This document shows positions 12,476 to 13,866 of a stretch of DNA of 37,207 nt, in pieces. How positions within the stretch are numbered: the stretch's first letter is position 1; each line of letters starts with the position of its first letter. This DNA is from a virus, in the IMG/VR virus record IMGVR_UViG_3300045988_171829, one strand, 5' to 3'. The notes beneath the pieces are model-generated. The model did not search any database. It was not told the origin of the DNA and was given only the letters and a program-made list of their open reading frames with translations. Made by a program: the position numbers and the translations under genes.

Positions 12476-12547
12476 AAAAAAACTCTTTAAGTTGTCTGCA
12501 ACCAAACTTTCAACTTAAAGAGCCCCACCAAAAAGGTCTTTCACTTT
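12476..12547 (-). ncRNA. Predicted ~70-nt countertranscript (ctRNA) antisense to the rep leader
   Basis: Minus-strand TTGACT (12583-12578) - 18 nt - TATAAT (12559-12554). A 12-bp perfect hairpin (12483-12494/12511-12522) is followed by T7 only on the minus strand. Ends are estimated. Confidence 0.4.
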
Positions 12548-12642
12548 GTATTAATTATATATTATTAATCATAATTTAGTCAAGTGTTAAGACCTCTTTG
12601 GGGAACATTTTTTATATGTTTTTCTCAAGGAGGTATTTTTTT

Positions 12643-13866
12643 ATGGCAACAAACGTTAAAGCAGATTCAACAGTAATTAAAAGGGTAATTAAGGAAGCTA
12701 AATATGCTCAAATTGATAATGACTTAATAAACAATAGAGAATTATCATTTAAAGCTCTTGGTATTATGACTTATATATTATCTAAACCAGATGATTGGCA
12801 AATATATATATCAGATTTATGTAGAGATAAAGATGGTGAAAAAAGTGTAAGAGCTGGCCTAAATGAATTAAAAGATAAAAAGTATATTCAAAGATATAGA
12901 GTTTATGACATGGACACTGGTAAAGTTCATCACTGGGAAACTTTAGTTTCTGAAACTCCATTCGAAGATTCTGAAATAATTTCTTCAGTTAAAGAAAAAT
13001 ATTTTAAAGATTCAGAAGGTAAAATTATTAATAAAAAAATTAAAATAAAATCTTTTGAAAGAAGTGTTCCAATCGTTATAGAAAGAGAAGTTACACTACT
13101 TTCCCAAAAGGGTAAAATAGAAAATAAAAATAAAAATTTTCTACTTTCCCAAAACGTACAAGTAGAAAACCTACAAGTAGAAAACGCAGGACAACAAATA
13201 CTAAATTCTTTTACTAACACTAATTCTTTCACCAACACTGATATTAGTAATAATAGTAAGGGAGATAAATCTCCACAAGCTATTCGCTTTGAAGCTATTA
13301 TTGGTAAAACTTTAGGCAAAACAACTTTACCTAAATTTGAAGAACATATTAAAAACTTTAATGATGATCTAATTGAATCTATTTTGGTATATGCAGAAGA
13401 AACACATGCTAGGACTTATCAATGGTTTGAAGATAGGATTAATGAATGTATGAGAAAAGGGGTTGTTACAGGGGAACAATTCACTGCTGATGTTAATGCC
13501 TATAGAGAAAAACAAAGACAAGCTAAAAACAGAGCATTAAAAGAAAAAGATGAAAATAAAAATTTAGATAATGCAATTGAAGCAGCACAAGAAAGAGAGC
13601 TTAATGAAAGTATAAATAAAGGGATAGATATATCTTCTGGTGTTGAAATTGAAGAAGTAAAAGAAGTTATTAAAGAGTTTGTCAGTGATAGTGTATTTAA
13701 GGCATGGATAGCCCCTAATAAGTTTTTAAATGTTAATGATAGAATTGTAATGGCGTGTGTAAATAGGTTTAGTAAGGACGTAATAGAGAGAAGATACTAT
13801 AGTGAAATATGCACTGCATTAAAATCAAGTGGATTTGATAAAGAGTTTTTGTTAAGTGTGGATTAA
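12643..13866 (+). CDS. Plasmid-type replication initiator: wHTH + DnaD-like + DnaA-domain-I-like C-terminus
   Basis: The ATG at 12643 follows AAGGAGG (the track start at 12598 has no RBS). N-terminal winged-helix-like region (LSFKALGIMTYILSKPDDWQIY). Central DnaD-like region (LVYAEETHARTYQWFEDRI). The C-terminus VFKAWIAPNKFLNVNDRIVMACVNRFSKDVIERRYYSEI parallels DnaA domain I (SFETWMK...LTITAPNEFARDWLESRYLHLI). Confidence 0.7.
   Translation: MATNVKADSTVIKRVIKEAKYAQIDNDLINNRELSFKALGIMTYILSKPDDWQIYISDLCRDKDGEKSVRAGLNELKDKKYIQRYRVYDMDTGKVHHWETLVSETPFEDSEIISSVKEKYFKDSEGKIINKKIKIKSFERSVPIVIEREVTLLSQKGKIENKNKNFLLSQNVQVENLQVENAGQQILNSFTNTNSFTNTDISNNSKGDKSPQAIRFEAIIGKTLGKTTLPKFEEHIKNFNDDLIESILVYAEETHARTYQWFEDRINECMRKGVVTGEQFTADVNAYREKQRQAKNRALKEKDENKNLDNAIEAAQERELNESINKGIDISSGVEIEEVKEVIKEFVSDSVFKAWIAPNKFLNVNDRIVMACVNRFSKDVIERRYYSEICTALKSSGFDKEFLLSVD
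13096..13239. repeat. Cluster of three direct-repeat pairs inside rep (iteron-like)
   Basis: CTACTTTCCCAAAA at 13096-13109 and 13141-13154. TACAAGTAGAAAAC at 13157-13170 and 13172-13185. An 18-bp tandem AATTCTTT(T/C)AC(T/C)AACACT at 13204-13221 and 13222-13239. Confidence 0.8.

Follow-up and report, generated by a model that had tools for sequence, protein, structure and literature searches.

The window analyzed here is the whole 37,207-nt stretch of the IMG/VR virus record IMGVR_UViG_3300045988_171829, and the subject of this study is the leader of its rep gene, which encodes a plasmid-type replication initiator. Within this leader lie a minus-strand promoter, a hairpin with a T-run on the minus strand (H1) and two alternative helices of the plus strand (H2 and H3), the latter of which encloses the Shine-Dalgarno (SD) sequence of rep (Table 1). 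An earlier reading by a model, made from the letters alone (the sequence-only reading), had predicted from these elements an antisense RNA of about 70 nt controlling the translation of rep. The antisense promoter and the perfect hairpin H1 are present as that reading described them. The run A7 at 12476-12482 on the plus strand supplies T7 past H1 on the minus strand only, and H1 in plus-strand orientation is followed by CCCCACCAAAAA. H1 is predicted to serve as a terminator in the antisense RNA and as a target hairpin in the sense leader. These elements together would give an RNA running from about 12547 to 12476, and its 72 nt agree with the length predicted before. In its predicted fold (-21.1 kcal/mol, z -2.8), a terminator hairpin follows a 5' tail. 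The hairpin had been placed about 60 nt beyond the predicted start; it does end there, but it begins about 25 nt from that start.

Table 1 Features of the rep leader and of adjoining genes in the window
Feature	Position	Strand	Remarks
97-aa HTH_3 gene (PF01381)	12039-12332	+	Pfam HTH_3 E 6e-16; adjoins the rep control region
Hairpin and T7, likely terminator of the upstream HTH gene	12334-12367	+	Read from the sequence
DnaA box, perfect consensus TTATCCACA	12367-12375	-	Sole match in the window; 24 nt upstream of the rep -35
Candidate rep promoter, TTGATA-17-TACAAT	12399-12427	+	Score 10/12
Predicted countertranscript, ~72 nt	12476-12547	-	25-nt 5' tail complementary to the pre-emptor, then H1 terminator hairpin and U7
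H1	12483-12494 (CTCTTTAAGTTG) / 12511-12522 (CAACTTAAAGAG)	both	Perfect 12-bp stem, 16-nt loop
Pre-emptor (5' arm of H2)	12525-12546	+	Complementary to the 5' tail of the antisense RNA
Antisense promoter, TTGACT (12583-12578)-18 nt-TATAAT (12559-12554)	12554-12583	-	In the apex of H2
Shared arm	12582-12603	+	Would pair with the pre-emptor (H2, ON) or the SD region (H3, OFF); anti-SD CCUCUUU at 12593-12599
H3	12592-12608 / 12616-12634	+	17-bp hairpin enclosing the SD AAGGAGG (12627-12633); proposed attenuator
U7 tract	12636-12642	+	One base past H3, immediately before ATG; proposed termination point
rep	12643-13866	+	407-aa initiator, plasmid-type; N-terminus like the winged helix-turn-helix (wHTH) of DnaD, C-terminus DnaA_N-like
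ParM-like ALP_N ATPase gene (ParM/ALP)	14079-15008	+	Downstream of rep
Small ribbon-helix-helix (RHH) protein gene	15014-15277	+	Downstream of the ParM/ALP gene

On the sense strand, the sequence-only reading had paired 12523-12540 with 12589-12603. This pairing is found in the minimum free energy structure of the leader, where it extends to the 19 pairs of H2 (12525-12546/12582-12603). The anti-SD within the 3' arm of H2 was likewise confirmed to be complementary to the SD with one G-U pair, and H2 and H3 have 12592-12603 in common. H3 folds with -19.2 kcal/mol and z -5.6 on the plus strand, against -9.3 on the minus strand. A long stem of 17 bp followed by U7 is the textbook form of an intrinsic terminator, and H3 with its U7 tract just before the ATG therefore bears the signature of one. 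Among the 41 genes of the window, rep alone has five or more consecutive T in the spacer from SD to start, the spacers of the others being A-rich. The earlier claim that the output is masking of translation only was accordingly not upheld, because the anti-SD:SD pairing is part of a terminator-like hairpin that is kept, with its T-rich run, in all relatives compared.

We further examined the competition between H2 and H3 by folding the leaders in silico. H2 formed in 17 of 17 leaders when folding was confined to the nascent leader, ending just short of the 3' arm of H3. With the antisense footprint (H1 and the pre-emptor) held unpaired, H3 formed and the SD was fully paired, again in all 17, which bears out the proposal that an antisense RNA covering 12523-12547 would free the anti-SD for pairing with the SD. 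The free full-length leader often preferred H3 at equilibrium, so the choice between the two helices would be kinetic and made during transcription, as expected for an attenuator. H1 and the pre-emptor both fall within the footprint (12476-12547), and the antisense promoter lies between it and the shared arm; the 5' end of the antisense RNA, near 12547, lies about 80 nt from the SD.

IMG/VR, metagenomes and Logan/ENA contigs supplied the leaders of relatives, together with one genome of Clostridium cuniculi, which carries L001, and scans of IMG/VR for H1 stems yielded one further locus only (L063; related loci are cited by their L numbers). A minus-strand promoter of the form TTGAC(T/A/G)-17/18-TATAAT, about 60 nt upstream of the ATG, was present in 20 of 20 leaders, down to approximately 43% Rep identity. 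Variants of its -35 hexamer were TTGACG in L054, TTGACA in L061 and TTGCAA in L036; in the alignment of 12 sequences the hexamers were invariant and the spacer was variable. An SD-enclosing hairpin of 15-19 bp, followed by a T-rich run and the ATG, was present in 18 of 18 relatives, the run being broken by a single A in L061 and L023. An antisense RNA of approximately 72-90 nt, consisting of a 5' tail, a hairpin and a U-run, was predicted in most of 17 relatives; automatic end-finding failed for L049, L056, L034 and L023. The whole cassette was found only upstream of relatives of Rep, including full-length and partial matches (L034-L036), and occurs once in the window. One relative, L055, lacks it (region 1160-1503): its Rep is 51% identical, a SieB-like gene comes next and no ParM gene adjoins rep. 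On the other hand, L023 (region 1229-1488) keeps the cassette; its leader is longer by about 80 nt, and the antisense region contains an additional hairpin and T-run.

Covariation was assessed on several alignments. Since MAFFT placed the most distant leaders wrongly when all 17 were aligned at full length (A3), H2 was assessed on a 12-sequence alignment (A4), and H3 and H1 on short alignments of their own (A5 and A6, respectively). For H1 and H2 taken together, 87.6% of the cells were paired and 13 pairs had changed on both sides, which was reached by none of 500 shuffles; controls in which the structure was slid along the alignment gave 28-59% paired. H2 helices alone were 75-89% paired, with seven pairs changed on both sides. 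The alternative combination of H1 and H3 gave 92.7% paired cells and 13 pairs changed on both sides (0 of 500 shuffles). In the 18-sequence alignment of H3, 87% of the cells were paired, and no shuffle of 500 reached either the percentage paired or the covariation score; 17 and 10 of the 500, respectively, attained the two measures based on pair counts. For H1 on the minus strand (15 sequences), nine of the 11 pairs showed double changes (0 of 500 shuffles). Overall, compensatory change in each of H1, H2 and H3 went beyond shuffled and slid controls. Furthermore, H3 contained 29 G-U cells on the plus strand, compared with three that would be G-U on the minus strand, and by this asymmetry H3 is evidently a structure of the sense RNA. 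The non-canonical cells of H1 were C-A or A-C on the plus strand, which correspond to G-U on the minus strand (3 vs 0, in L005/L016, L054 and L024). Small as these numbers are, this asymmetry weakly suggests selection on the antisense terminator. The existence of a countertranscript gene with its own promoter and terminator inside the rep leader, which the sequence-only reading had put forward, is thus supported by conservation and covariation.

We propose that these elements form a countertranscript-driven switch limiting Rep synthesis, probably with attenuation of transcription as its main output and masking of the SD as a second layer. The rep gene would be transcribed from its own promoter with a leader of approximately 208 nt, and a strong promoter on the opposite strand of this leader would produce the RNA of about 72 nt that ends at H1 and U7 (12522-12476). 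While antisense RNA is scarce, the pre-emptor would pair with the shared arm as soon as this arm is made, forming H2; the polymerase would then read into rep and the SD would remain free. When antisense RNA is abundant, as at high copy number, it would contact the loop of the nascent H1 and pair through its 5' tail with the pre-emptor. The arm 12592-12608 would thereby be freed to pair with 12616-12634 as H3, enclosing the SD, and H3 with U7 would stop transcription at about 12636-12642, just before the ATG. In transcripts that escape termination, the SD would be masked. Promoter firing, RNA pairing, termination at H3 and the dependence of copy number on the switch are steps that we infer from the leader sequences.

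Several observations weigh against this proposal or temper its support. Although the antisense promoter scores 11/12 and is the top promoter-like site within 11900-13000, taken alone it is within chance, as 1.26 matches with at most one mismatch are expected per 37 kb, and the eight promoter-like sites found within 11900-13000 compare with 8.7 expected in such AT-rich DNA. Its significance comes from its conservation in relatives and not from the window. In H2, 12 cells were G-U on the plus strand compared with eight that would be G-U on the minus strand, and the window sequence folds H2 at least equally well on its minus strand. Because part of the structural derivation relied on the window sequence, the slid controls are biased towards the window, and the sequences are related by descent, so that shuffle counts are to be read as support and not as probabilities. 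The model also leaves unexplained a U6 tract in the loop of H3 (12609-12614) that is kept in nearly all leaders; it might be a pause site. The possibility that H2 and this U6 tract form the terminator, which would invert the logic of the switch, was rejected, as 4-5 nt part the stem from the U-run in all leaders.

A simple terminator scan detected neither H1 nor H3 because of its limits on loops and bulges (H1 is poor in G-C pairs and its loop measures 16 nt, and H3 contains a bulge), and folding was used for the hairpins instead. A minus-strand open reading frame at 12341-12505 (54 aa) was rejected as the product of the antisense promoter, since the H1 terminator would end the transcript inside it. 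No second target of the antisense loop beyond chance was seen elsewhere in the window. Rfam gave no match in the window at the gathering score, and none of its countertranscript (ctRNA) families (e.g., ctRNA_pT181, ctRNA_pGA1, and ctRNA_pND324) matched within 12300-12700 at E values up to 10. Matches resembling microRNA precursors, at E values up to 10, were regarded as chance matches reflecting the long H2 hairpin.

Control of translation alone is the alternative that deserves most attention, and we consider it unlikely. Here H3 would hide the SD without terminating transcription, and the T-run would be an incidental spacer. An SD-enclosing hairpin would indeed also work in this way, which is a further point against attenuation: in pSK41, an RNAI of about 83 nt binds approximately 100 nt upstream and induces a stem-loop sequestering the ribosome binding site (RBS) without attenuation (PMC5703833). 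H3 encloses AAGGAGG in every leader, and the frequent folding of the free full-length leader into H3 means that SD masking must matter for read-through RNA. What speaks against translation alone is the T-rich run directly past the hairpin in all 18 leaders, the absence of such a run from the other 40 genes of the window with their A-rich spacers, and the textbook terminator form of the stem and U7.

Two further explanations dispense with the antisense RNA as the controlling signal. The H2/H3 attenuator could be real and yet be set by a protein (Rep or the product of the upstream helix-turn-helix (HTH) gene) or by interference between convergent promoters. The two promoters are about 150 bp apart, an HTH_3 gene lies directly upstream, and pIP501 shows interference of this kind, modulated by CopR (PMC5703833). 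Nevertheless, compensatory changes and G-U pairs of the minus strand only maintain H1, indicating selection on the small RNA; in every leader the antisense footprint reaches precisely to the pre-emptor and no further; and the upstream HTH gene is absent from L056, L057, L060 and L061, all of which keep the cassette. We therefore regard this explanation as very improbable. Least credible to us is that the palindromes act as DNA, as an origin, cruciform or operator, with the RNA reading a coincidence. In its favour, H1 and H2 form inverted repeats near the rep promoter and a DnaA box, and a site in double-stranded DNA would tolerate the two orientations in which the H1 loop motif is found. Yet H3 relies on G-U pairs of the plus strand, the stems change by compensatory substitution without conserving the sequence itself, and the T-runs lie on the correct strand for each hairpin. 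The countertranscript-driven attenuator thus remains our preferred reading.

The loop of H1 (12495-12510 in the window) carries a motif, GUUUGG(Y)(S)AC, that was found in either orientation among the relatives. The antisense RNA carries it in the window, L014, L051, L053, L004, L024, L057, L060 and L036, and the sense RNA in L005, L016, L001, L054, L049, L056, L061, L034 and L063. Whole loops of closely similar leaders can be reverse complementary: the loop of L004 matches the reverse complement of that of L049 at 15 of 17 positions, with identical stems, and the loop of L053 matches the reverse complement of that of L054 at 13 of 16. These patterns indicate that recurrent small inversions between the 12-bp stem arms of H1 have flipped the loops. 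Leader identity and Rep identity were also decoupled when the regions corresponding to 12475-12645 and 12643-13866 were compared in the pairs L014/L051, L005/L004 and L005/L001. For instance, L014 and L051 share 98% of the leader and 54% of Rep, and L005 and L004 share 99% of Rep and 82% of the leader. Recombination at or near the ATG has therefore swapped the cassette between Rep lineages. The conserved GUUUGG is a candidate for a U-turn of the YUNR type, which would work from either partner. It is possible, if doubtful, that inversion of the loop, presumed to be a kissing loop, offers a one-step route to a new incompatibility specificity. Sense and antisense loops stay mutually complementary after a flip, so self-control would be preserved; if the idea is right, a flipped loop would have the same sequence as the target loop of an unflipped relative and would have lost its complementarity to it, and flips combined with cassette swapping would let related phage-plasmids coexist in one cell. 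This effect on incompatibility is speculation.

Upstream of the leader, transcription starts were placed from the promoter hexamers, and rep transcription would start near 12435, so that H1, H2 and H3 all lie within the resulting leader of about 208 nt. Both hexamers of the candidate rep promoter are invariant in nine related leaders, and similar sites were seen by eye in L057, L060, L061 and L023. The likely terminator closes the upstream HTH gene, so rep would be transcribed separately; in the alignment, its hairpin is kept with changed stem sequences in L004 and L024. The DnaA-box consensus has a single match in the window, and the chance of at least one match in 37 kb is approximately 39%; TGTGGATAA at this site is conserved in alignments of related leaders. 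Three HTH_3 genes follow one another upstream of rep on the plus strand (11012-11377, 11741-11935, and 12039-12332), and L051, L052 and L054 have an HTH gene of the same type at the position equivalent to the last. By analogy with pIP501, whose CopR is a PF01381 protein of 92 aa in the same position relative to rep (PMC5703833), the 97-aa protein is a candidate Cop-like repressor. No operator for it was identified.

The wider gene content is that of a siphovirus-like genome, with genes for a large terminase, a portal, a major head protein, a tape measure protein and an endolysin. Given these structural and lysis genes on one replicon with plasmid replication and partition genes, the window is by its gene content a phage-plasmid. 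The order rep, ParM/ALP, RHH was compared in relatives and this synteny was seen there. Relatives have contigs of 30-50 kb. A tyrosine recombinase (integrase or dimer resolvase) is also encoded, at 2549-3610 on the minus strand, and the region 16147-18020 (minus strand), beside the partition block, holds genes for an FtsK/SpoIIIE-like ATPase and for an adjacent product weakly similar to DUF5697. A second, phage-type replication module, comprising a Phage_rep_org_N replisome organiser and a DnaC-like helicase loader, lies at 7443-9039 on the minus strand. With two separate modules, the phage presumably uses one initiator for lytic and another for plasmid replication. The coding region of rep contains direct repeats of 15 nt (2.3 copies, 13151-13185) and 18 nt (two copies, 13204-13239), which appear in the protein as QVEN and NSFTNT. 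Such repeats could act as iterons or mark an internal origin, as in replicons of the pSK41 type.

Hundreds of metagenomic relatives of Rep were found, most of them in gut samples, and their source names include Clostridium and Intestinibacter bartlettii. Searches of PLSDB and INPHARED by tblastn gave no full-length relative, only matches to the N-terminal wHTH domain, and megablast of the rep region against phages and plasmids gave no match. By the tblastn searches, this Rep belongs to no characterised replicon.

Phage-plasmids are common, and to our knowledge the setting of their copy number is understood for a few Gram-negative models only; a recent review of phage-plasmids does not mention antisense control. 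The present analysis proposes a testable control circuit for a widespread phage-plasmid family of the gut Clostridia type. It also describes a compact, well-covarying antisense/attenuator pair outside Rfam that could serve as an orthogonal RNA regulator, as has been engineered from pT181. Moreover, the natural loop inversions and cassette swaps provide a route to study how incompatibility specificities evolve.

The control logic is classical, being that of pT181 and pIP501, and the sequence family is one not previously described. The sequence-only reading had invoked the logic of pMV158, pIP501 and pT181; the latter two fit, but pMV158 is a poor analogue, as the antisense footprint lies about 80 nt upstream of the SD. 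An RNAI/RNAII attenuator of the repC leader in the pT181 family was reportedly described by Novick et al. in 1989. The terminator of pT181 is stem-loop IV, which holds the RBS and sits directly 5' of the repC start, and a pre-emptor competes with it (PMC5703833). The likeness to the window is extensive: the rep leader is the source of a small antisense RNA, 87 nt long in pT181 and predicted at about 72 nt here, a pre-emptor competes with the RBS-containing, terminator-like hairpin for its 5' arm, a U-run follows just 5' of the start codon, and antisense pairing would hand the arm to the terminator. However, there is no sequence or Rfam similarity between the two. The pT181 initiator is a Rep_trans rolling-circle nickase, whereas that of the window combines a DnaD-like wHTH with DnaA_N and stands beside ParM and RHH genes; the predicted antisense RNA of the window is a single hairpin with a 25-nt 5' tail; and the replicon is a 37-kb tailed phage.

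The Inc18 plasmids pIP501, pAMbeta1 and pSM19035, with CopR and RNAIII, come close in layout, pIP501 joining a pT181-like arrangement to an upstream PF01381 Cop protein (PMC5703833). As in these plasmids, a PF01381 HTH gene with its own terminator precedes the rep promoter of the window, and a long leader follows with an antisense promoter midway, convergent promoters, and an inverted repeat and poly-T just 5' of rep. The initiator family of Inc18 is PriCT_1/RepR and its RNAIII is longer, with several loops; in contrast to Inc18, the candidate HTH gene is missing from several relatives that keep the cassette. The RNAI of pSK41/pSK1 (RepA_N) resembles the window in that an antisense RNA of about 80 nt acts from a distance, approximately 100 nt before the start of translation, by inducing a stem-loop in which the RBS is sequestered. 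It differs in having two stem-loops, and the review text reports the pSK41 stem-loop without transcription attenuation (PMC5703833), whereas a conserved U-run follows the hairpin of the window; the title of the primary paper on pSK41, for its part, speaks of dual-level regulation. Finally, pMV158 with RNAII and CopG shares an antisense RNA that has a functional 5' tail and a single terminator hairpin and controls rep of a Gram-positive replicon, but its RNAII pairs beside the repB ribosome binding site and blocks translation, whereas the antisense RNA of the window would act through a structural switch.

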